A stretch of 64,000 nt of DNA, from assembly GCA_018052475.1 (NCBI GenBank), contig JAGPNG010000005.1:11355-75354 (forward strand). Reading direction: 5' to 3'. The notes below the pieces were generated by a model. The model did not search any database. It was not told the origin of the DNA and saw only the letters and a program-made list of their open reading frames with translations. Origin of the DNA: Candidatus Fermentithermobacillaceae bacterium (GTDB lineage Bacteria > Bacillota > Sulfobacillia > Fermentithermobacillales > Fermentithermobacillaceae). Within the stretch, counting starts at the first letter, position 1. The number at the start of each line of letters is the position of its first letter. Position numbers and translations under genes: made by a program. Positions 5,360-24,423 of this stretch are shown in pieces.

Positions 5360-6235
5360 CTCTTCCCCCGAAGCAAAGGGCGAAGCAGGGGGGACGGCAC
5401 TTTCTGCTTCACCTTCATTTTCATTGGCGGCCTTCATTCTCCCCAAACTTACCCGATGCACTTGATTTGTACTGATCCCCATTAATCCCGCAATCCGCCG
5501 ATGGGTAAGACCAGGGACTTCGAGCAGCCTGCCTATTAGCTCCCTAGCGCTGTTTCTATCCAAGGAAGCCAACCTCTCCGCTTGGCAGTCGCCAATTGCC
5601 GCCGCTCCGATTTCCTTCTCTCGAAGATAGTCTAGTATGACGCTTTGCGCTCTCCTTGTCCTGTCCCTCTCGATCTCTTCGGGCACATCCATATACTCGT
5701 CATTATCAGTTTCTCTGTGAAATTTGACAAACTCGCTGATTCCGTGGAAAAATCCTAGGACGAATTGCTTTTGGTGTTCGCCTATTATATGCGGGAATTC
5801 GAGGTATTCATTGTAACTGCTCCAAGCATACTCATCCGGAAAGCGAACTAAGTTTGCGTTAACCGGGTTTCTGTGCACGTACCTTATAACACGAAGCAAA
5901 TGATGTTCGCTAAAGATCGCTTTGCTTTTATACCGATCTTGAAATACATGGCCTATTCTGCCCATGTCCCTATTGAATCGCATTGCGTATTGTATGTTTA
6001 TGCTCGACATTGCGTTGGCCAGACTGACAAGATCGCAGTGAACCACCATGTGCGCGTGGTTACTCATCACACAATAGGCTGCCAGATCAATCGCGCCTTC
6101 ATTAACTTTATTTTCTAGTAGTCCCATGAAGAAGGACCTTTCGTCTGGCCCCAAGAATACTGTTTCCCGGTTGTTGCCTCTCACTATCACGTGATAGTAA
6201 TCGAAGGCACTCTCCTGCCTGGCTTGTCTCCCCAT
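5357..6235 (-). CDS. REP-associated tyrosine transposase (RAYT; IS200/IS605 Y1 family) with C-terminal HTH domain
   Basis: HuH-Y1 motifs YHVIVRG, YCVMSNHAHMVV and QDRYKS. The C-terminal region LIGRLLEVPGLTHRRIAGLMGISTNQVHRV is a DnaA-domain-IV-like HTH. The start is proposed at ATG 6235, which has an AGGGGTG SD; the ORF could extend to 6472. Confidence 0.75.
   Translation of the reverse strand: MGRQARQESAFDYYHVIVRGNNRETVFLGPDERSFFMGLLENKVNEGAIDLAAYCVMSNHAHMVVHCDLVSLANAMSSINIQYAMRFNRDMGRIGHVFQDRYKSKAIFSEHHLLRVIRYVHRNPVNANLVRFPDEYAWSSYNEYLEFPHIIGEHQKQFVLGFFHGISEFVKFHRETDNDEYMDVPEEIERDRTRRAQSVILDYLREKEIGAAAIGDCQAERLASLDRNSARELIGRLLEVPGLTHRRIAGLMGISTNQVHRVSLGRMKAANENEGEAESAVPPASPFASGEE
5382..5411 (+). 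repeat. REP-like 30-nt element, copy b (gaagcaggggggacggcactttctgcttca), tandem with copy a
   Basis: Same orientation as copy a and separated from it by a degenerate partial copy. It overlaps the 3' end of the RAYT ORF. Confidence 0.7.
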
Positions 6236-6575
6236 GCATATCACCCCTGTAACCAGAGTACTTCGAACCGACGGGCGCATGTCTCCCCTTCTACGCTCCC
6301 AACCCGGCACTGTCGCCGACATTATACCACCATTTCCCATTTCAATCATTATATGCCACCCCTTGTGCCCGGCTCGCGCAAAAGACCTTTCGACCGCGCT
6401 TGAACTCACTTGCTCGTGGGCAATAAGGCGAGAGAAGGGCAACCGATGGGCCGGCAAATTGCCGAGATGCACAGCCGTTACGCCTGTCCAAATGAAGTGA
6501 CGCCGAGCGAGAGAACGGAGAGCACTATGAATGGGAACGTAATGATAATGACTTCAGTGTGACTTCAAGAGCAAA

Positions 6576-6605
6576 GAAGCAGAAAGTACCGTCCCCCTTG
6601 CTTCA
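6576..6605 (-). repeat. REP-like 30-nt element, copy c (gaagcagaaagtaccgtcccccttgcttca), inverted relative to a/b
   Basis: It is the reverse complement of copies a and b at 27/30 positions and lies in the RAYT upstream region. Confidence 0.7.
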
Positions 6606-6663
6606 GCTTGCACCTGGCGTTGAAGACTGGTAAGCTTTCTGATCTGGAAAGGAGTCATGAGAT

Positions 6664-8934
6664 ATGTCGAAGACTCATAGCGGACCTGAGGCTACTTCTG
6701 GTGCTGACAAGTATACTCAGGTTAAGCGTGTTTTGTTTATGCTACTGAAAATTGCGCTTGCTCTGGCTCTAATAGGAGTGATTGCGTTTGGTGTGGTTTT
6801 TGCGTTCGTAGACTTGCCTGAGCTGACAGTTCCTGAGTCTACTCGCATTTACGATGTAAACGGCAAGACAATTTCCTCTCTGTTTGTCGAAAACCGTGTG
6901 GTGGTGCCTCTGGAAGAAATCCCGGAGTCGTTGAAACAAGCAGTACTTGCAGTAGAGGACAAAAGGTTTTATTCCCACAACGGCATCGACCCTCGCGCTA
7001 TCGGAAGAGCTCTACTCAGAAACATTGCAGCATTAAGGATCGTAGAAGGCGGAAGCACCATTACTCAACAACTCTCTTGGAATTTGTTCCTCAGTCACGA
7101 ACAGACGCTCAAGCGCAAAGCTATGGAAGCAGTCTATGCTCTCAAACTTGAACAGGAATACACGAAAGACGAAATTCTCGAAATGTACCTAAACGTTATT
7201 TACCTTGGACATGGGACCTACGGATGTGAGACAGCAGCGCGCCTTTACTTTGGCAAGTCAGTAAGAGATTTGACTCTCGGTGAATCTGCTACTCTTGCCG
7301 GGATAATAAAAGGTCCCGAATACTATTCGCCTTACAACAATATGGAATTAGCCATCCAAAGGCGAAATTTGGTACTCGATCTCATGGCTGAGCAGGGGAT
7401 CATCGATGAGGAAGTCGCGGAAAGTACGAAAGCCGAACCTATAAACCTGGCAGGAATGCCTAAAAATACTGCCGCCTATTTCACGGATTTTGTTATAGCT
7501 CAAATAAGGGAAATCAATCCCGAAATATCCTCCAATATTTACAAAGGCGGCTACGAGATTTACACCACGCTAGATCTAGATATGCAGCTTGCTGCCGAAA
7601 AGGCTTTTGCTAATTACATCCCAGAAGGAGAAAAAGACGGAGATGGTATCACGCAGCCACAGGGCGCGCTGGTTGCTATAGAGCCCGGAACCGGCTACAT
7701 CAAGGCCCTTATCGGAGGCAGGGATTGGACGGAAACCCAGTTCAATCGAGCTTACCAAACGAGACGTCAATCCGGTTCCGCCTTCAAGATGTTTGTATAT
7801 GCGGCAGTATTGGATCTAGGCCACCCAATCTGCGAAGAAAAAGTGTGCGAACCAATCGAGTTTCCGGGCGGTTCTCCCGGTGAAGTCTACACGCCAAAAG
7901 ACTTCGGTTGGCCTCCTTACCATAATAGACCGCTAGATATACGCGAAGCGGTAGCCATCTCCGACAACGTAGTAGCAGCTAGGTGGGCTGACGAGATAGG
8001 TCCACGGACCATAATCAAGTATGCAAGGGAACTGGGCGTGAAAAGCCCAATGCAGCCAAACATACCTCTTGCATTAGGCGCTTCCGAAGTGAGTCCCATG
8101 GAAATGGCCGCTGCGGGTGCTGCATTATCAGCACAAGGAGTCTACGCCGAGCCTATAGCAGTGCTCAAAGTCGTTGATGCCGCGGGAAGAGTAGTCATAG
8201 ACAACAAGACCAGTACACGTCAAGCGCTAAATCCCGTAACGTCATACATGCTTACCAACGTCCTAAGTTCAGTGCTAGAGCCGGGTGGAACAGGCGCCGG
8301 GCTAAGAAACTACATAGGTGGAAGACCTGCAGCAGGCAAAACCGGCACCTCAGACGGACAGTTGGAAGCATGGTTTGTGGGGTATACGAAGGAAATCTCT
8401 TGCGCAGTCTACGTAGGCTGGGACAACAGAGAAAAAGCGCTTTCCGGAACGGGTGGTTCCGTTGCGGGTCCTATTTGGGCAAGTTTCATAAGTAACGCCC
8501 TTGCCGGGAGGCCCTATAGAACCTGGGATATGCCCGAGGGCCTCGCATGGAAAGCGGTATGCAACGAAACCGGGCTTCTCGCAGGTGAGACCTGTACAGA
8601 CGTGCGGCAAGAACTTTTCAGGACCGATATTGAGTGGCCCGTTTGCACAGGCGAACACGAAAAAGAGCCTGGGGAAGAGGAACAACTCCCGAACGACGAA
8701 ACTGGCGAAAACCAGGAAGAAGGCCCAATGCCCGAAGGCGATCTACCTGAGGGTGATACAACCCAAGATGAACTTCCAAATGAAAATCCAGACAACGAAG
8801 AGAGCCAAAGCGATGGCAAGGGACATGAGAACGATGCCCCCTCTAAGGAGCCGGGCACAGAAGATACCGAACCTGAGGGCGATGACTCAAAGGACGAGAT
8901 AACTGATAACGAGGGAAAGAAGGGCTCTCCCTGA
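6664..8934 (+). CDS. ponA: class A penicillin-binding protein 1A (glycosyltransferase + transpeptidase) with acidic low-complexity C-terminal tail
   Basis: N-terminal TM anchor, GT51 motifs EDKRFYSHNGID and RIVEGGSTITQQL, transpeptidase SxxK (SGSAFK) and KTGT. SD ggaaaggagtc precedes the ATG. Confidence 0.9.
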   Translation: MSKTHSGPEATSGADKYTQVKRVLFMLLKIALALALIGVIAFGVVFAFVDLPELTVPESTRIYDVNGKTISSLFVENRVVVPLEEIPESLKQAVLAVEDKRFYSHNGIDPRAIGRALLRNIAALRIVEGGSTITQQLSWNLFLSHEQTLKRKAMEAVYALKLEQEYTKDEILEMYLNVIYLGHGTYGCETAARLYFGKSVRDLTLGESATLAGIIKGPEYYSPYNNMELAIQRRNLVLDLMAEQGIIDEEVAESTKAEPINLAGMPKNTAAYFTDFVIAQIREINPEISSNIYKGGYEIYTTLDLDMQLAAEKAFANYIPEGEKDGDGITQPQGALVAIEPGTGYIKALIGGRDWTETQFNRAYQTRRQSGSAFKMFVYAAVLDLGHPICEEKVCEPIEFPGGSPGEVYTPKDFGWPPYHNRPLDIREAVAISDNVVAARWADEIGPRTIIKYARELGVKSPMQPNIPLALGASEVSPMEMAAAGAALSAQGVYAEPIAVLKVVDAAGRVVIDNKTSTRQALNPVTSYMLTNVLSSVLEPGGTGAGLRNYIGGRPAAGKTGTSDGQLEAWFVGYTKEISCAVYVGWDNREKALSGTGGSVAGPIWASFISNALAGRPYRTWDMPEGLAWKAVCNETGLLAGETCTDVRQELFRTDIEWPVCTGEHEKEPGEEEQLPNDETGENQEEGPMPEGDLPEGDTTQDELPNENPDNEESQSDGKGHENDAPSKEPGTEDTEPEGDDSKDEITDNEGKKGSP

Positions 8935-17804: not shown

Positions 17805-19310
17805 CTATTTGTAGAAGTCCAAGGGATTCTGAGCAACTCCGTCTACATGAACTTCGAAATGAAGATGCGGGCCTGTCGCAGATCCTGTCATCCCCACGTA
17901 ACCGATTACGTCACCTTTTGAAACCTTATCCCCAGTGCTCACTGCGAACTTAGACATGTGAGCATACCACGTCACCATTCCGCCGTGGTCTATTTTCACC
18001 AGATTACCGTAGCCGCCGCTATATCCCACAAAAGTTACGACCCCTGCATCAGCAGCCTTGATAGACGTACCCGAAGAAGCTCCGATGTCGATTCCTCGAT
18101 GGAAAGCGCCCCAGCGCCAGCCATAGTAGGAGGTAATCGAACCCTGGCAGGGCCAAGCAAGTGTTCCTGACCCCATGGCCGGAACCTCTTTGCTACCCCT
18201 TACGATCTTCTTCGCAACAGGGTAAGAAACTATTGTCTCGGATATTTTGGTTCTTGAGACCTCTTTGCCATTCTCCCTTACGATCTGCTCCACAATCTCC
18301 TTCTGGCCGCTTTTGCCCTCCTGCGTGACTGTCTCTTGCCACGGCCACATCGAAGAGTCGTAAGAAACCTCAACCGAAAAAGGAATAGATTCAGTATACG
18401 TCAGGGTTTCCCGGCTGGTCAAAGTAACGTAAGGATCCGGTACCACTAAATTCAGGGCATCCCCTTCATGTATCAAATCACCGCTCACCGTCGGATTTGC
18501 CCTCTTCAGGTCGTCCACGGTAAGGTTGTTAGCATTGGCTATGGCCCAAAGACTATCTCCGCGCTGCACTGTGTAGCTGAGTATTTTGTCAGTCCCGCGT
18601 GTGAGGATCTGCTCAGCTTCTGCTCTGGTTCTGAATATGGCAGTTGACACTTCTTTCTGAACTATGTCTATCTTTTCTTTTATGAGCACTTCGTCACAAG
18701 TTGCGTGGCCCGGCTCAATGATGTTCTTTATGTAGTTCTCTCTAAGGTCAGAAAGAGTTCCTCTTGCTTCTTCTTCGGAAGACAAAGCGACGACGTCCTT
18801 GCCGTCAACACAAATGACATAACTCATTGCCTGAAACGAAATCTTGTCTTTTATGGTCTGACCAAGTTCTTCAGGATCGCTAAGTTCTATCTCCTTGTCT
18901 CCCTTAGCGACTTCAGTAGTTATATCGGTAGCGACCTTTGCTTCTGCACCAACCCTAAAAGATTCTTCTTCTGCTAATCTGTCAACGATCTGGTTGACAA
19001 GGTCTACTTCCTCTACATAGCCAACTGTTTCGCCATCCATCATGACAGCGTAAATCTTTGGACGCGACAACATTACGCCGGCTGTAACTGCTATTATCAG
19101 CGCTACAGCTACGCTTAGTGCTATGTAGGGGTTTTTTGTGTATTTTAGGTTCTTAAATCTACCGGTAATCTCACTAAAAATGTCCGACTTCCCGGTGCGA
19201 GCCACTTTCTTTCGCCGCCTCGGGCGCGATTTCTTCGGGCTCACACCTTCGGAACACAAGATGTTTTCTTCCATGAATTTCGCCGCACTTAGAAACTGTA
19301 CAATTCCCAA
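17805..19310 (-). CDS. membrane-anchored LysM + M23 (LytM-type) peptidoglycan endopeptidase
   Basis: TM helix, LysM YTVQRGDSLWAIANANNLTVDDLKRANP, and C-terminal M23 motifs HRGIDI and GPHLHFEV. TTG start (or ATG at 19274). Confidence 0.8.
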   Translation of the reverse strand: MGIVQFLSAAKFMEENILCSEGVSPKKSRPRRRKKVARTGKSDIFSEITGRFKNLKYTKNPYIALSVAVALIIAVTAGVMLSRPKIYAVMMDGETVGYVEEVDLVNQIVDRLAEEESFRVGAEAKVATDITTEVAKGDKEIELSDPEELGQTIKDKISFQAMSYVICVDGKDVVALSSEEEARGTLSDLRENYIKNIIEPGHATCDEVLIKEKIDIVQKEVSTAIFRTRAEAEQILTRGTDKILSYTVQRGDSLWAIANANNLTVDDLKRANPTVSGDLIHEGDALNLVVPDPYVTLTSRETLTYTESIPFSVEVSYDSSMWPWQETVTQEGKSGQKEIVEQIVRENGKEVSRTKISETIVSYPVAKKIVRGSKEVPAMGSGTLAWPCQGSITSYYGWRWGAFHRGIDIGASSGTSIKAADAGVVTFVGYSGGYGNLVKIDHGGMVTWYAHMSKFAVSTGDKVSKGDVIGYVGMTGSATGPHLHFEVHVDGVAQNPLDFYK

Positions 19311-19538
19311 ATCGGCTCAAACAACGCCTCTAAACCTCAAAATGCATATAAGTGCAGCCTAGCCCTCCTTTCACAACGTAATCTCTTGTTTTATTGGTAG
19401 AATAGTCTTGTTCTGTCATGGGTATTGTGATGGAACATATTCATTGGTGTCTTGCGTTTCTGATCCCGGTCAGCCACATCTGTAGGGCATTTTCGGCAAT
19501 CCCCCGTCGCGACCAATGGAACATATTCTATCCCCCAT

Positions 19539-20999
19539 TCAAAACTCCTGCATAACTTTTAGATATTGTATATACAATGCAAACTCCAGTCTTAGTTTCA
19601 TGATCGAGCACGACAAAGGAACAGGATCAAGGGTGCTTCCCGTAGCCCCAAGTGAACCCGCGTGACAGCCGCCTCCGCATAGATACCTTGCCCAGCAGTC
19701 CATGCATTTCGGCTTGTTGGGCACGCGAGAAAGGAAAAACCTCCTTGCCAGTTCTTCCCTTTTGCCGCTCTCTTCGACTTTGCCTCTACCCCACGGCTCG
19801 TGTATGTAACCCATTGCAAACTCTTCTTGTCCAACCAATTGGTGACACGGGTATATTTCTCCGGTAGGCGTAACCGCCAAATACTCATATCCTGCGCCGC
19901 AGCCTGTGATCCGTCGCTCTTTGCACACTCCATGCGTAAGACCTATCTCAAAGTGATAGAAGTCTAGAGGGTCTTTGCTTCTGTAGCATTCTTCCCAGAA
20001 ATCAGTAAGCCGCAAATACGATTCTTCCAAAGCGGGAAGATCGCTTTCTGAGATAGCCCAATCCGTATCGACTCCTATGGCAGGTTCTAATGATATTTTC
20101 CTAAACCCTATATCATATAGATACTTCACGTCGTTGTAGAAATCCAGGTTGTACTTTGTGTAAGTACCTCTCACGTAGTAGTCGGAACCGCCCCTAGACT
20201 CAACAAGGGAAAGAGCGTTTTTCAATGCGTCATCGTGGCTCGTTCCACCATCTCGATATCTTCTCATCCTGTTGTGAGTCTCGGGTCTGCCGTCAAGGCT
20301 GAGGATGGCACTTATGCGCCACTCATTGAGGAAGTCTATAATGTCTCTGGTCAGAAGGGTGCAGTTGGTAGTGATGGTAAACCGGAATACCTTATCATGC
20401 TTCTTGGCCTTCTCGGCGGCGTAAAGCACAGTCTGTTTTACTGTATCGAAGCATAGAAGCGGTTCTCCGCCGAAAAAGTCTACGTCGAGGTATCGTCTGT
20501 TACCTGATGCATCCACCAGAAAGTCTATGGCTTTTTTGGATGTCTCAGGAGACATTAACATGGGATTTCCCCCAAAACGCCCTTGAGATGCAAAACAGTA
20601 CCGACACACGAGGTTACAGTCATGAGCAACATTAAGGCACATTGCTTTAGGGGTAGGCAGATGTAAAAGCGTATCATCGCTACCGGGTTTTAGCACCCCG
20701 TGTTCCCCGAAGACGTCATCACGTCCCCATATGGTCTTGCCCGACTGTGAGCGTATCTCATCCCAAGCATCCTGTATGTCATTAGGCGAGAATTCCGGAG
20801 ACAGCAAACACACAGCCCTATCCATCTCGGCCCGTTCTTCTTCCGCACTTGAGAATGAAAGAAGATCCAGTTCTTGTTCGATACAATAGTCAACCAGAGC
20901 TCTTCCAACCCGATCAAGTTTCAGCAAAGAACCTGTAGCCGAATCATAGGCAAAATCCGAACCACTAATGCTAAAGACATGGACCTGATTCGGCCTCAT
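19539..20999 (-). CDS. radical SAM/SPASM peptide maturase (SCIFF/ranthipeptide thioether synthase type)
   Basis: CNLVCRYC radical-SAM cluster motif, C-terminal SPASM cysteines (CGAGYEY...CHQ, CMDCWARYLCGGGCHA) and an N-terminal ~110-aa RRE-like extension. The start is proposed at ATG 20999 (MRPNQ), 2 nt after the precursor stop. Confidence 0.85.
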   Translation of the reverse strand: MRPNQVHVFSISGSDFAYDSATGSLLKLDRVGRALVDYCIEQELDLLSFSSAEEERAEMDRAVCLLSPEFSPNDIQDAWDEIRSQSGKTIWGRDDVFGEHGVLKPGSDDTLLHLPTPKAMCLNVAHDCNLVCRYCFASQGRFGGNPMLMSPETSKKAIDFLVDASGNRRYLDVDFFGGEPLLCFDTVKQTVLYAAEKAKKHDKVFRFTITTNCTLLTRDIIDFLNEWRISAILSLDGRPETHNRMRRYRDGGTSHDDALKNALSLVESRGGSDYYVRGTYTKYNLDFYNDVKYLYDIGFRKISLEPAIGVDTDWAISESDLPALEESYLRLTDFWEECYRSKDPLDFYHFEIGLTHGVCKERRITGCGAGYEYLAVTPTGEIYPCHQLVGQEEFAMGYIHEPWGRGKVEESGKREELARRFFLSRVPNKPKCMDCWARYLCGGGCHAGSLGATGSTLDPVPLSCSIMKLRLEFALYIQYLKVMQEF

Positions 21000-21001
21000 G
21001 C

Positions 21002-21157
21002 TTACTTTTCGGGACATGGCTGATTAGAGACAGTACACGAAGTTTTGCACGCCGACTGACAAGAAGCCTGGCATGACTCACAATTAGGAGTTTTCCTACT
21101 CCAATCAGGCACTATAACCGGAACAACGTGATTGCCTTTGCGTATCTTCTTATCCAT
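21002..21157 (-). CDS. SCIFF-family Cys-rich ribosomal peptide precursor (51 aa): MDKKIRKGNHVVPVIVPDWSRKTPNCESCQASCQSACKTSCTVSNQPCPEK
   Basis: Not in the ORF track because it is under 60 aa. GGAGGG SD lies 11 nt upstream. Six Cys match the SCIFF core C.ECQ.SCQSACKTSC...NQ.C. Immediately upstream of the rSAM maturase on the same strand. Confidence 0.8.
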   Translation of the reverse strand: MDKKIRKGNHVVPVIVPDWSRKTPNCESCQASCQSACKTSCTVSNQPCPEK

Positions 21158-21513
21158 ATTCAAAATCCCCCTCCATATTCACGACACTAATTCTACAAGG
21201 AATACACGCCAGCTATCAAGGCGAACAGGTTTTCGCGTGTTCTTCTGCCTGATCTGGCCACAGTTTGATTGAGATAGGAACAGGTATTCCTACTCATAAT
21301 ATCGAATAATTACATACGTTATGGAATCTGCCGTTGATAACAGGATTTGTTTTTGAAAAGTCTGTTTCTTTAATCGCGTTGTTCTATGGTTCGGGCACGA
21401 CGGGAAATATCAAGATTGAAGGTAGGTGGTATAGGGACTCAATTTCTGCAGTGATGCAGCTAACCTCTAGGGATGCAAGACGCACTCAGATTGATAATCA
21501 GGGAGGTGTTTCC

Positions 21514-22290
21514 ATGATAGCCGCCGGAAAACAATTTTCATTTTCGGTTCTAGTTCTGCTCTTCGTTCTGTTCGTCTATTGCATAGACTCATCTAGAAAA
21601 GGCAAAGTGCCGTCTATTAGAAAGCTGCCCGCTCTCGACGCTATTGAAGAAGCCGTAGGCAGGGCCACAGAGATGGGAAGACCGGTTCACTTTAGCCCAG
21701 GTATTGTGGAGTTGACCCATGAACGAGCCCCTCAGACCTTGGCTGGTCTGTCAATCCTTTCTTACGTAGCCGGGCTTTGCGCAAAGTACGATACAGACCT
21801 AATAACCACGATTATGATGCCCGATGTGTACGTTGTCGCCGAAGACGTGGTCAAACAACGATTTCTTGCAGAAGGCAAAGCTAGCCAATACAAACCGGAA
21901 ATGGTCCGGTTCATCGGCGCAGAACAGTTTGCCTACGCTGCAGCCGCAGTCGGAATAATGTACAGGGAACAAGTGGCAGCGAACATAATGATTGGAGCAT
22001 GGTACGCCGAGTCGCTGCTCTTAACCGAAGCTGGAGCCCAAACCGGAGGCATTCAGATTACAGGTTCAGCAACGGTAGCTCAGCTTCCATTCTTGGTCGT
22101 TGCTTCTGACTATTGCTTAATAGGCGAAGAGATATACGCAGCTAGCGCCTATCTTTCTAGGGATCCGGTTGAGCTGGGGGTCATCCTTGGCCAGGATATC
22201 GCGAAAGCCGTGACTATAGGGTTGATGATAGCGGGAGCCTTATTCCTTGCGTTCGGAAACGAGACAATTGTAAATCTCGTTACGATGTAG
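21514..22290 (+). CDS. hypothetical membrane protein (gene 1 of a four-gene cluster)
   Basis: ATG 21514 is preceded by an AGGGAGGTG SD. N-terminal TM helix (FSFSVLVLLFVLFVYC) and C-terminal hydrophobic segments. No recognisable domain. Confidence 0.6.
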   Translation: MIAAGKQFSFSVLVLLFVLFVYCIDSSRKGKVPSIRKLPALDAIEEAVGRATEMGRPVHFSPGIVELTHERAPQTLAGLSILSYVAGLCAKYDTDLITTIMMPDVYVVAEDVVKQRFLAEGKASQYKPEMVRFIGAEQFAYAAAAVGIMYREQVAANIMIGAWYAESLLLTEAGAQTGGIQITGSATVAQLPFLVVASDYCLIGEEIYAASAYLSRDPVELGVILGQDIAKAVTIGLMIAGALFLAFGNETIVNLVTM

Positions 22291-22320
22291 GCCTTTAGAG
22301 CATACGGAGGTGAATTACAA

Positions 22321-22950
22321 TTGAAGGACACGATACCTGTAGCAATAATGACGGTGATCGCTCTTGTAATGATATTGGATTTCTTCATAGGCGACAGTAC
22401 CGCCCTTGATTGGATCAACAACACAGCTGTAATTACCAGGTCATGGGGAATCGTCATTTCTGCGTTTGCGATGGGGCTCGGTGCTATTAACCTATTGCGG
22501 AGGCACTCTAGGTCCATAGTAAGGCGTGATGACAATGCATTTTACAGTTTCCTGCTGGTAGCCTCAATGCTGGTTATGATCGTTCTCGGCGTAGCCTCCG
22601 GCACTGAAAGCCCAGGCTACGACTTTATGTTTTCAAACATCTTGTCTCCGGCCTCAAGCACCATGTATGCGTCAATAGCCTTTTACATCGTGACAGCAGC
22701 TTATAGATCCTTTTCGGCGCGAAACCTAGAAGGATGGCTACTTCTAATCACCGCGGTAATCGTTATGCTTGGCAAAGCCCCTATTGGCAGCGTCATTTCA
22801 GACTTTTTCCCAGTAGCCAGTAACTGGATTGAATCAGTACCGAATACTGCAGGTATGCGCGCTATCATGATGGGAGCTGCTCTAGGAGTCATCTCTAGCG
22901 CAGTTAAGATGTTTCTGGGTCTGGACAAAAGTTATCTGGGACAACGCTAG
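22321..22950 (+). CDS. hypothetical polytopic membrane protein (gene 2)
   Basis: TTG start with a GGAGGTG SD. About 5-6 predicted TM helices. No recognisable domain. Confidence 0.6.
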   Translation: MKDTIPVAIMTVIALVMILDFFIGDSTALDWINNTAVITRSWGIVISAFAMGLGAINLLRRHSRSIVRRDDNAFYSFLLVASMLVMIVLGVASGTESPGYDFMFSNILSPASSTMYASIAFYIVTAAYRSFSARNLEGWLLLITAVIVMLGKAPIGSVISDFFPVASNWIESVPNTAGMRAIMMGAALGVISSAVKMFLGLDKSYLGQR

Positions 22951-22968
22951 GAAAGGAGGAAACGCACA

Positions 22969-23829
22969 GTGGCACAAAAATTGCAGTCGATACCAAAAAC
23001 GTGGATGTATGTACTTCTTTTGGCGGTACTAATCGGTCCTCTTTTGAAGCCGATTGGCATTCCTATAAAGATCAGCGAGGGCACACAGTCTGCTTACGAC
23101 GTAATCGACAGTCTTGAGCCTGGATCGAAAGTAGTCTTTGGATTTGACTACTCTCCAGGCAACGCGGCAGAAATGGAGCCTCAAGCTATTGCAATTCTTA
23201 AGCATCTTCTTTTAAAAGATGTAAAAGTGATTGGTATCTCTTTTCAGGCTCAAGGGCCCATGCTGGCTGTCAAAGCCTTTGAGGCAGCAGGGTGGACCGA
23301 AAAGGAATATGGCACAGACTATGTGAATCTAGGCTACAGAGCCGGAGGTCAAGGAGCAGTGGCAGCATTTGCCTCTGATGTTCCCGGGACGTTTAACACT
23401 GACTATCAGGGAAAGAGCGTTTCGTCCTTTCCCATTATGCAAGGAGTAAAAACTGCAGCCGACGTCGACATGATAATAACTATAGCTCCAGGTACGCCCG
23501 GTCCGGAAGACTATGTGCGACAGGTCTACAGCACCTACAAGACGCCTTTGGTGTGCGGAGTGCCTGCGGTTGCTATTACCCAAGTAGCTCCATATGTTCA
23601 AGCCCAGCAAATCAAAGGTATTCTTGGAGGACTCCCTGGAGCCGCTGAATATGAGCTTCTTATGAATCAACCGGGCAAGGCAGTTGCAGCTATGGACGCA
23701 CAATCCCTGGCTCACCTGCTAATAGTGGCGCTCATCATCTTGCGAAACGCAGCTAATATCTTCAGCAAATCGTCGCCCAAGTCGCAAACTACTGCAAGCG
23801 CTGGTAGCAGCGCAGGAAGGGATGTGTGA
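22969..23829 (+). CDS. hypothetical protein with N-terminal signal/TM anchor, soluble domain and C-terminal TM helix (gene 3)
   Basis: GTG start with an AAGGAGG SD 8 nt upstream. Hydrophobic stretches WMYVLLLAVLIGPLL and LAHLLIVALIIL. Confidence 0.6.
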   Translation: MAQKLQSIPKTWMYVLLLAVLIGPLLKPIGIPIKISEGTQSAYDVIDSLEPGSKVVFGFDYSPGNAAEMEPQAIAILKHLLLKDVKVIGISFQAQGPMLAVKAFEAAGWTEKEYGTDYVNLGYRAGGQGAVAAFASDVPGTFNTDYQGKSVSSFPIMQGVKTAADVDMIITIAPGTPGPEDYVRQVYSTYKTPLVCGVPAVAITQVAPYVQAQQIKGILGGLPGAAEYELLMNQPGKAVAAMDAQSLAHLLIVALIILRNAANIFSKSSPKSQTTASAGSSAGRDV

Positions 23830-23832
23830 TAT

Positions 23833-24423
23833 ATGAGTCTCAACTTTGGCACATGGGTAGCGGGGTTGATTACCATCGCCATAATGAGTCTTGTGTGGAA
23901 AGAAAACCCCTTCTATCGGTCTGCCGAACACCTTTATGTTGGAGTAAGTGCGGGTCATGCTGTGGTTATGGCCTATAACAACATAAAAGACATGGCATTT
24001 CAACCGCTCGCTGCAGGGCAGTTTGTCTGGATTATCCCAATAATACTGGGCATTCTCCTTTATGCAAGATACACAAAACAGGCCTGGCTTGCCAGATATC
24101 CTGTATCGGTAATAGTAGGCATAGGTACAGGGGTTGCGGTGCGCGGGGCAATTCATGGAGACTTTACTCAGCAGGTCGCAGCGACCATGAAAGTCGGCAG
24201 CGCGAACGAGATACTCTTGCTGGTCTTCGTGGTGATGTCTTTGAGTTATTTCTTTTTCTCAAGAGAATTTCAAGGGCCGATTAGCATCATCCCGAAAGCA
24301 GGTAGATTGGTTTTGATGGTAGCCTTTGGCGCCGCCTTTGGCACAACCGTAATGGGTAGAATGGCACTGCTCATAGGACGAATTCAATTTGTACTCGGCG
24401 ATTGGTTAGGTATACTCAGATAG
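23833..24423 (+). CDS. hypothetical polytopic membrane protein (gene 4)
   Basis: GGAAGGGA SD and ATG 4 nt after the gene-3 stop. About 5 TM helices. Confidence 0.6.
   Translation: MSLNFGTWVAGLITIAIMSLVWKENPFYRSAEHLYVGVSAGHAVVMAYNNIKDMAFQPLAAGQFVWIIPIILGILLYARYTKQAWLARYPVSVIVGIGTGVAVRGAIHGDFTQQVAATMKVGSANEILLLVFVVMSLSYFFFSREFQGPISIIPKAGRLVLMVAFGAAFGTTVMGRMALLIGRIQFVLGDWLGILR

Follow-up and report, generated by a model that had tools for sequence, protein, structure and literature searches.

A known kind of peptide-maturation operon, in which the gene for a SCIFF (named for six cysteines within forty-five residues) precursor is followed by that of its maturase, lies on the minus strand of contig JAGPNG010000005.1, from an uncultured member of Candidatus Fermentithermobacillaceae (Bacillota). 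All coordinates refer to the 64,000-nucleotide stretch of this contig that was analysed (the window). The first gene, scfA, encodes a peptide of 51 residues, and the second, scfB, encodes a radical SAM (S-adenosylmethionine)/SPASM enzyme. The pair is very probably a SCIFF operon that works by the mechanism set out below. Direct results for this pair are the identity of the genes and the families to which they belong, the fold, the conserved residues, purifying selection and the way in which the genes overlap. Because the identical peptide already carries the SCIFF name in GenBank, the pair is correctly identified as a known precursor and maturase, and nothing is new in what it is. Its lineage-specific leader, lost structured spacer and gene overlap are modest variations. 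The features of the precursor gene are:

21002–21157 (stop codon included), minus strand: scfA, 51-residue SCIFF precursor peptide, supported by TIGR03973, PF13165, identity to GenBank entries and purifying selection.
21167–21174, minus strand: Shine-Dalgarno sequence of scfA, GGAGGGGG, read from the sequence and kept, with an insertion, at locus L001.
21101–21130, minus strand: leader motif H10-VVPVIVPD-W19, the presumed RRE-binding strand, with subfamily consensus H[IV]xP[IV][IV]xPDW.
21005–21082, minus strand: core C26–K51, CESCQASCQSACKTSCTVSNQPCPEK, with six cysteines spaced C-x2-C-x3-C-x3-C-x3-C-x6-C.

The small open reading frame (ORF) consists of 51 codons between ATG 21157–21155 and TAA 21004–21002. 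Its product, MDKKIRKGNHVVPVIVPDWSRKTPNCESCQASCQSACKTSCTVSNQPCPEK, is the peptide quoted in an earlier note on this DNA, and a reading of the minus strand from 19400 to 21500 together with the ORF list confirms the coordinates, sequence and Shine-Dalgarno site given there. The GGAGGG of this site ends 11 nt ahead of the ATG. An alternative start, TTG at 21163, lies two codons upstream and would have a poor Shine-Dalgarno spacing. The peptide scores 52 bits against NCBIfam TIGR03973 (cutoff 50, E 4.9e-14) and 56.8 bits against Pfam PF13165 (cutoff 27, E 2.1e-15), in agreement with the proposed SCIFF-type six-cysteine precursor. Only the core (residues 20/21–48) aligns to either profile, and the leader half of each is unmatched. 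The cysteines are C26, C29, C33, C37, C41 and C48; there are six, as had been described, although they fall in the last 26 residues (C26 to C48) and not the last 25.

Comparison with related sequences supports the same identity. In the maturase search the scores break between about 47 cluster representatives (clusters defined at 90% identity) with 48–100% identity (480–1147 bits) and canonical ScfB with 40–44% identity (at most 437 bits); the former are referred to here as the subfamily. Thirteen SCIFF precursors of the subfamily were aligned using MAFFT with 12 canonical or canonical-like peptides (alignment A3). The six-cysteine spacing and SCQSACKTSCTV core of scfA are identical to those of the latter 12, and residues C26, C29, C33, C37, K38, T39, S40, C41, T42, V43, N45 and C48 are invariant in subfamily and canonical SCIFFs alike. 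In the nucleotide sequences of eight related loci, codon differences in the scfA frame are synonymous in 529 cases and non-synonymous in 219, so the frame is clearly under purifying selection at the sequence level. Between the window and L088 there are 27 synonymous and 6 non-synonymous differences in 42 codons. The gene stands directly upstream of a maturase recognized by TIGR03974, a layout that recurs in 9 loci of the subfamily and in at least 69 of the canonical type. No second Cys-cluster peptide, and no second CxxxCxxC/radical SAM gene, was found in the 64-kb window.

An exact-sequence look-up (NCBI, JGI, ENA and Logan) places the 51-residue peptide on 25 contigs, and it is named SCIFF in GenBank. 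The NCBI accessions of the identical peptide are HON87507.1, HOV66710.1, HRC53825.1 and MBP8620368.1, all from metagenome-assembled genomes (MAGs) of Candidatus Fermentithermobacillaceae. These entries do not differ from scfA and are automatic annotations; no experimental or published description of them was found in the literature searched. A further entry, QUL97876.1 of Ca. Fermentithermobacillus carboniphilus, shares the leader motif and synteny of the window gene. The description of the peptide as unannotated therefore holds for the ORF track, with its threshold of 60 amino acids, but not for GenBank. The discovery value is small, as SCIFF and ScfB form a curated family that pipelines detect and the exact peptide is already labelled; the case does illustrate that a 60-residue ORF cutoff hides precursors of peptides that ribosomes make and that are modified after translation (RiPPs). 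In the protein collection a 403-residue CCA tRNA nucleotidyltransferase of a cyanobacterial MAG (P0024) shares a 90% cluster with 52-residue SCIFF peptides, which looks like a clustering artefact.

The features of the maturase gene are:

19539–20999, minus strand: scfB, radical SAM/SPASM thioether-forming SCIFF maturase of 486 residues (492 from 21017), recognized by TIGR03974 and by its likeness to CteB.
20745–20984, minus strand: RRE domain of ScfB, residues 6–85, from AlphaFold2 topology and superposition on CteB.
20595–20618, minus strand: radical SAM motif C128-NLV-C132-RY-C135, invariant in 100 homologues, with PF04055 and PF13353 matches.
19608–19925, minus strand: SPASM region with eight cysteines, invariant in alignment A2, for two predicted auxiliary [4Fe-4S] clusters.

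ScfB matches the TIGR03974 equivalog model end to end (residues 6–478 on profile positions 1–449) with 449.4 bits against a cutoff of 425. The two profile searches proposed earlier as a check, TIGR03973 for the peptide and TIGR03974 for the enzyme, thus both exceed their curated cutoffs. The solved relative closest in sequence is CteB (5WGG/5WHY; E 6e-105). An AlphaFold2 model built from 100 homologues has a mean predicted local distance difference test score (pLDDT) of 93.9 and a predicted template-modelling score (pTM) of 0.92. CteB is also the top Foldseek match to this model (479 alignment columns, template-modelling (TM) scores of 0.85/0.94, E 4.6e-43, 37% identity). The protein identical to the window ScfB is in cluster P0034, is 492 residues long and uses the overlapping start discussed below; its relatives carry the name "thioether cross-link-forming SCIFF peptide maturase".

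All three expected parts of the enzyme are predicted. The N-terminal extension, proposed earlier to be RRE-like, is modelled as strands 6–11, 14–19 and 24–28 followed by helices 30–41, 52–66 and 72–85, with pLDDT above 90, and this domain is included in the CteB superposition; by the model it is an RRE, a PqqD-like winged helix. Across the family, residues H7, F9 and D19 hardly vary. The radical SAM barrel follows, with CNLVCRYC at residues 128–135, and then the SPASM domain. The motif and eight cysteines of the SPASM region (C359, C367, C385, C432, C435, C441, C445 and C464) are invariant in the 100-sequence alignment, which bears out the description of a radical SAM enzyme with twin-cluster SPASM cysteines. 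TIGR04085 recognizes the SPASM domain with 62 bits (cutoff 27), and PF13186 scores 21.0, just under its cutoff of 21.5.

Several smaller peculiarities of ScfB were also observed. An insertion of roughly nine residues, PWGRGKVEE, occurs in the SPASM region (ScfB ~405–414, about 19760–19790 on the minus strand; pLDDT about 71); most members, subfamily and canonical alike, lack it. The cysteine in the last helix of canonical ScfB (RLECA) is replaced by Tyr or Phe in the subfamily (RLEyAL), with F473 in the window at about 19581–19583 (minus strand). Because of this replacement, that cysteine cannot be an essential cluster ligand in the subfamily lineage. Between the window and L001, ScfB is 77% identical, compared with 95% for MurA, 94% for the DUF6754 protein and 87% for the M23 peptidase, and to judge from these sequences ScfB is evolving faster than its neighbours. 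Finally, L089 (5983–7455) carries a subfamily-type homologue, P0040, that is 50% identical and is followed by an ANKH-like membrane gene in an unrelated context. No SCIFF ORF was found upstream of P0040, which may be an orphan maturase.

The leader of scfA differs from that of canonical SCIFFs. The motif H[IV]xP[IV][IV]xPDWx[KR] is found in the 13 subfamily peptides, with deviations in P0010 (Thr at the first Pro), P0009 (PNW) and P0005 (Arg at the His). Ahead of it lies an N-terminal extension, basic and variable, with a length of roughly 6 to 27 residues in A3 (9 in the window), and it is followed by four variable residues and then C[ED]SCQASCQSACKTSCTVSNQPCPE[KR]. The 70-plus canonical loci instead encode MKHIKTLNKANLKESAVKGGCGECQASCQSACKTSCTVANQKCE.... 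At 51 residues scfA is longer than the ~45 of SCIFFs, and Pro-Asn takes the place of Gly-Gly before the first cysteine, a variant common to the 13 subfamily peptides; the linker from motif to first cysteine is two residues shorter than the canonical one. The atypical leader pointed out earlier is therefore real and common to the whole subfamily, yet MAFFT aligns its H-[IV] with the M-K-H-I of canonical MKHIKTLN. These are the only leader positions retained in scfA. On the basis of this alignment the subfamily leader is a derived form of the canonical one and not an unrelated sequence. The N-terminal segment MDKKIRKGN was considered as the counterpart of MKHIKTLN and rejected, as it is not conserved in the subfamily and MKHI aligns on H10-V11.

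In the CteB-CteA structure the leader forms a beta-strand that pairs onto strand beta3 of the RRE (PMC6231123, PMC8326336). The recognition strand of the subfamily is rich in Pro and beta-branched residues and ends in PDW. Since the matching enzyme strands are conserved (H7, F9 and D19 nearly invariant, and the strand sG.LH.Ld in the group consensus), H10-VVPVIVPDW19 would be expected to bind the RRE in the same manner.

The arrangement of the two genes is defined by one further feature:

20997–21017, minus strand: scfA/scfB junction, with two in-frame ATGs around TAA 21004–21002, both without a Shine-Dalgarno sequence.

The first of these ATGs, 21017–21015, sits within the Pro47-Cys48 codons, overlaps scfA by 16 nt and yields 492 residues. 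The second, 20999–20997, follows the TAA after the dinucleotide GC, is in the frame of the radical SAM gene and yields 486 residues, with the gene ending at 19539. For the relatives, the start taken was the first one in frame that is met going upstream from the maturase's conserved VH(V/T)F N-terminus. This start is at -16 in seven of nine related subfamily loci and at -4, as a GTGA overlap, in the other two. The Pro-Cys codons CC(A/G)TG(T/C) supply the -16 start, as ATG or GTG. In L001, L082 and L086 the overlapping ATG is the sole in-frame start upstream of the conserved N-terminus, and in L084 and L088 the overlapping start is GTG. The +2 ATG is unique to the window among the loci examined, with ACT at that place in L001. 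Because it is missing in relatives where the overlapping start is the sole option, the sequences suggest that the ORF track's start at 21017 is at least as likely to be correct as 20999. The earlier note had taken 21017 for a mis-call, which is not borne out by the conservation of the -16 start. The tight junction that it described does stand, as an overlap across the subfamily, and coupling gains comparative support. A non-overlapping 'obvious' start is not necessarily the right one. The six residues by which the products differ, MSRKVS, are predicted to be functionally irrelevant because the first RRE strand of the model begins at residue 6.

The canonical loci are organized differently. From peptide stop to maturase N-terminus the spacer is 100 nt long at the median and 68 nt at its shortest (69 loci), and 57 of 67 distinct canonical spacers (L002–L080) fold far better than shuffled sequences (z < -2), with a median z of -3.5. 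Those inspected typically contain a single GC-rich hairpin, in many cases with a T-run behind it, and a Shine-Dalgarno sequence after that. This feature suggests a leaky terminator or a 3'-stabiliser that sets the precursor-to-enzyme ratio. The hairpin spacer is absent from the nine subfamily (Fermentithermobacillia-type) loci. In the window, with no Shine-Dalgarno sequence before either ATG, the most economical reading is that scfB would be made by termination-reinitiation coupling.

It could instead be argued that both genes are what they seem but that translation is uncoupled, ScfB starting independently at 20999 (or 21017) and the tight spacing reflecting genome compaction. A junction by itself is no proof of coupling; L081 has AGGAGG and a GTG 20 nt after the stop that might act independently, and a gap of 18 nt occurs at L090, which has a canonical-like leader. 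However, neither ATG in the window is preceded by a Shine-Dalgarno sequence, and the overlap of -16 or -4 in all nine subfamily loci contrasts with spacers of at least 68 nt, with hairpin and Shine-Dalgarno sequence, in 69 canonical loci. Independent initiation is accordingly regarded as unlikely, and coupling is preferred. Locus L090 itself (6001–7683) is labelled Ca. Fermentithermobacillaceae, has the more canonical leader MKHIQLVVKGELDGIENRGCGEC along with that gap, and has recJ, apt and relA as its context; it either represents an intermediate form or lies at a different chromosomal site.

Far less probable is that the enzyme belongs to another group, be it the anaerobic sulfatase-maturating enzymes (anSME), QhpD, a PapB-type ranthipeptide synthase or the 'not_ScfB' orphan group. 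All of these models give significant partial matches, and identity to canonical ScfB is only about 40%. Each match is nevertheless far below its curated cutoff, with 77.4 bits against 349.45 for anSME (TIGR03942), 197 against 453 for QhpD, 253 against 340 for PapB and 381.8 against 855 for not_ScfB (NF040492), while the TIGR03974 cutoff is passed. The gene adjoins a SCIFF precursor, and no sulfatase or qhp genes are present among the neighbours examined. By sequence anSME matches at E 1e-8; it has no RRE, and it superposes less well on the model (TM 0.61, in an alignment without the N-terminal domain). The grouping with anaerobic sulfatase maturases that had been raised earlier as a possible objection was thus not observed. 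That the small ORF is a chance or decayed, untranslated frame is the least credible proposal of all: it is shorter than 60 residues and its homologues in L086 and L087 are skipped by several gene callers, but it has profile E-values around 1e-14 to 1e-15, a strong Shine-Dalgarno sequence and conservation with a large excess of synonymous change, and, L089 apart, it adjoins its cognate enzyme in all the subfamily loci examined.

The mechanism considered very probable for the operon is as follows; for its chemistry, the leader-RRE contact, re-initiation and everything downstream, we infer by homology. A sigma-70-type promoter about 35 nt upstream would drive a short-leadered transcript, from which scfA would be translated from ATG 21157 behind its strong Shine-Dalgarno sequence. 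Ribosomes ending at TAA 21004–21002 would re-initiate at the ATG without such a sequence 13 nt upstream or 2 nt downstream, giving ScfB at a fixed, lower ratio to the peptide. The RRE of ScfB would then bind the leader strand H10-VVPVIVPDW19, extending its own beta-sheet, as CteB does with CteA. Cleavage of SAM at the radical SAM cluster would generate a 5'-deoxyadenosyl radical, and hydrogen would be abstracted from C-gamma of core T39 or T42. A thioether would form to Cys37, the fourth cysteine, with the SPASM auxiliary clusters assisting. This follows the SCIFF thioether chemistry described in PMC8326336 and PMC8172795. C37, T39 and T42 map onto Cys32, Thr34 and Thr37 of CteA/Tte1186a, and all three are invariant in A3; by analogy, with the donor Cys and both acceptor Thr conserved, ScfB probably joins Cys-S to Thr-C-gamma in scfA.

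A number of observations weigh against this interpretation or limit it. The TIGR03973 margin is 2 bits and is core-only (residues 21–48), and the TIGR03974 margin is 24 bits; these narrow margins put the pair at the edge of the curated family. Conservation of the -16 start is no independent proof of its use, since the conserved Pro-Cys codons in part dictate it. Two candidate scfB starts, 21017 and 20999, remain in the sequence, and independent weak initiation at ATG 20999 is possible. The position of the crosslink is disputed even for CteA, with Thr37 in vitro and Thr34 (C-gamma) in vivo, and because of this disagreement both acceptor Thr are left possible for scfA. One or more of the six cysteines may react.

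With regard to biological role, knock-outs in C. beijerinckii and C. ljungdahlii altered the expression of agr and sporulation genes and so linked SCIFF peptides to quorum sensing and sporulation (work of Chen et al. 2020, summarised in PMC8102284 and PMC8326336); this is the sole lead from experiment. The view that mature SCIFF peptides have no known role is somewhat dated, given the link that these summaries report. No later functional SCIFF study surfaced in a 2021–2026 literature search.

The nearest characterised system is CteA/CteB (thermocellin) of Clostridium thermocellum, with the same three domains (RRE, radical SAM and SPASM) in its enzyme. The core of CteA is that of scfA, CxxCxxxCxxxCKTSCTVxNQxC, donor Cys and acceptor Thr included. 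The differences are in the N-terminal extension and PxIxPDW motif of scfA in place of KTLNxxxL, in a spacer to the first Cys that is two residues shorter, in PN for Gly-Gly and in the tail PCPEK. ScfB is about 40% identical to CteB and has Phe for the last-helix Cys of 'RLECA', and the scfA and scfB genes overlap, unlike those of the CteA/CteB system with its hairpin-containing spacer. The first SCIFF to be characterised in vitro came from Caldanaerobacter subterraneus: Tte1186a/Tte1186 belongs to the same family, and the homologues L012 and L026 have a core spacing identical to that of scfA. Tte1186a has a canonical leader, MRRIITINKPTLRESLKKPG, and its spacer and context differ from the window as those of CteA/CteB do. 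PapA/PapB (freyrasin) and QhpD likewise involve radical SAM/SPASM enzymes that form non-alpha thioethers. Their substrates are different (Cys-x3-Asp repeats and the QhpC protein, respectively), and ScfB does not reach their profile cutoffs.

The Fermentithermobacillia-type SCIFFs could be a functionally distinct sub-type, with a re-coded leader/RRE pair, re-initiation by overlap and a fixed chromosomal position. This proposal is tentative, and its prospects are put at somewhat below even. If it is true, overlap and re-initiation would replace the hairpin-plus-Shine-Dalgarno spacer of Clostridia, and the re-coded leader would have an N-terminal extension, H[IV]xP[IV][IV]xPDW instead of KHIKTLN, and no Gly-Gly; from the fixed position, a connection with sporulation or with remodelling of the cell wall might be suspected. 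No description of these features (leader, lost structured spacer, gene overlap and position) was found in the literature searched. The subfamily provides a natural variant pair of leader and RRE, and swaps with CteA/CteB could map how the RRE reads the leader. The overlap here, set against the structured spacer in Clostridia, allows a simple test of what determines the ratio of precursor to enzyme in SCIFF operons.

Upstream of scfA one candidate element is present:

21190–21219, minus strand: sigma-70-like promoter candidate TTGATA-18 nt-TAGAAT, agreeing with the consensus at 10 of 12 positions and lying about 33 nt ahead of the scfA ATG.

The window and L001 hardly differ in this block, and the sequence diverges further upstream, which together with the consensus match makes it a candidate promoter of scfA. 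An Rfam scan of 19000–21700 at a permissive E-value returned only a sub-threshold snoRNA chance match; neither a riboswitch nor a leader RNA is present. Beyond scfB, the 228-nt gap folds no better than shuffled sequence (z -0.18) and contains no convincing terminator; no significant structure or Rfam family was found in the flanking intergenic regions.

In the window scfB is followed by a LysM/G5/M23 peptidase gene and murA. The gene order in the subfamily is dnaX-ybaB-recR-DUF2508 (yaaL)-bofA-(M23)-scfA-scfB-LysM/G5/M23-murA-htrA-PBP, and 80 canonical loci, covered to 4 kb on each side, do not show it. Because the order is lineage-specific and absent from the canonical loci, it is not a family-wide clue, and we take it for synteny of the lineage rather than evidence on function. 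Near scfA-scfB there is neither a protease gene nor one for a transporter/exporter. The closest genome locus, L001, is from a Ca. Fermentithermobacillaceae MAG, with neighbouring proteins at 87–95% amino-acid identity. The family is placed in its own class, Candidatus Fermentithermobacillia, in the Bacillota.

The upstream side shows local variation. Between recR and scfA the window has four divergent membrane-protein ORFs (21334–24423, plus strand), the first of which is a DUF6754 gene; the other three have no Pfam match. At this position L001 also has a DUF6754 gene, and other subfamily genomes have DUF2508 (yaaL)-bofA (and an M23 peptidase). In L082/L083 (3858–4637), from a related MAG, an IS200/IS605-type Y1 transposase gene stands directly upstream of scfA, replacing bofA.

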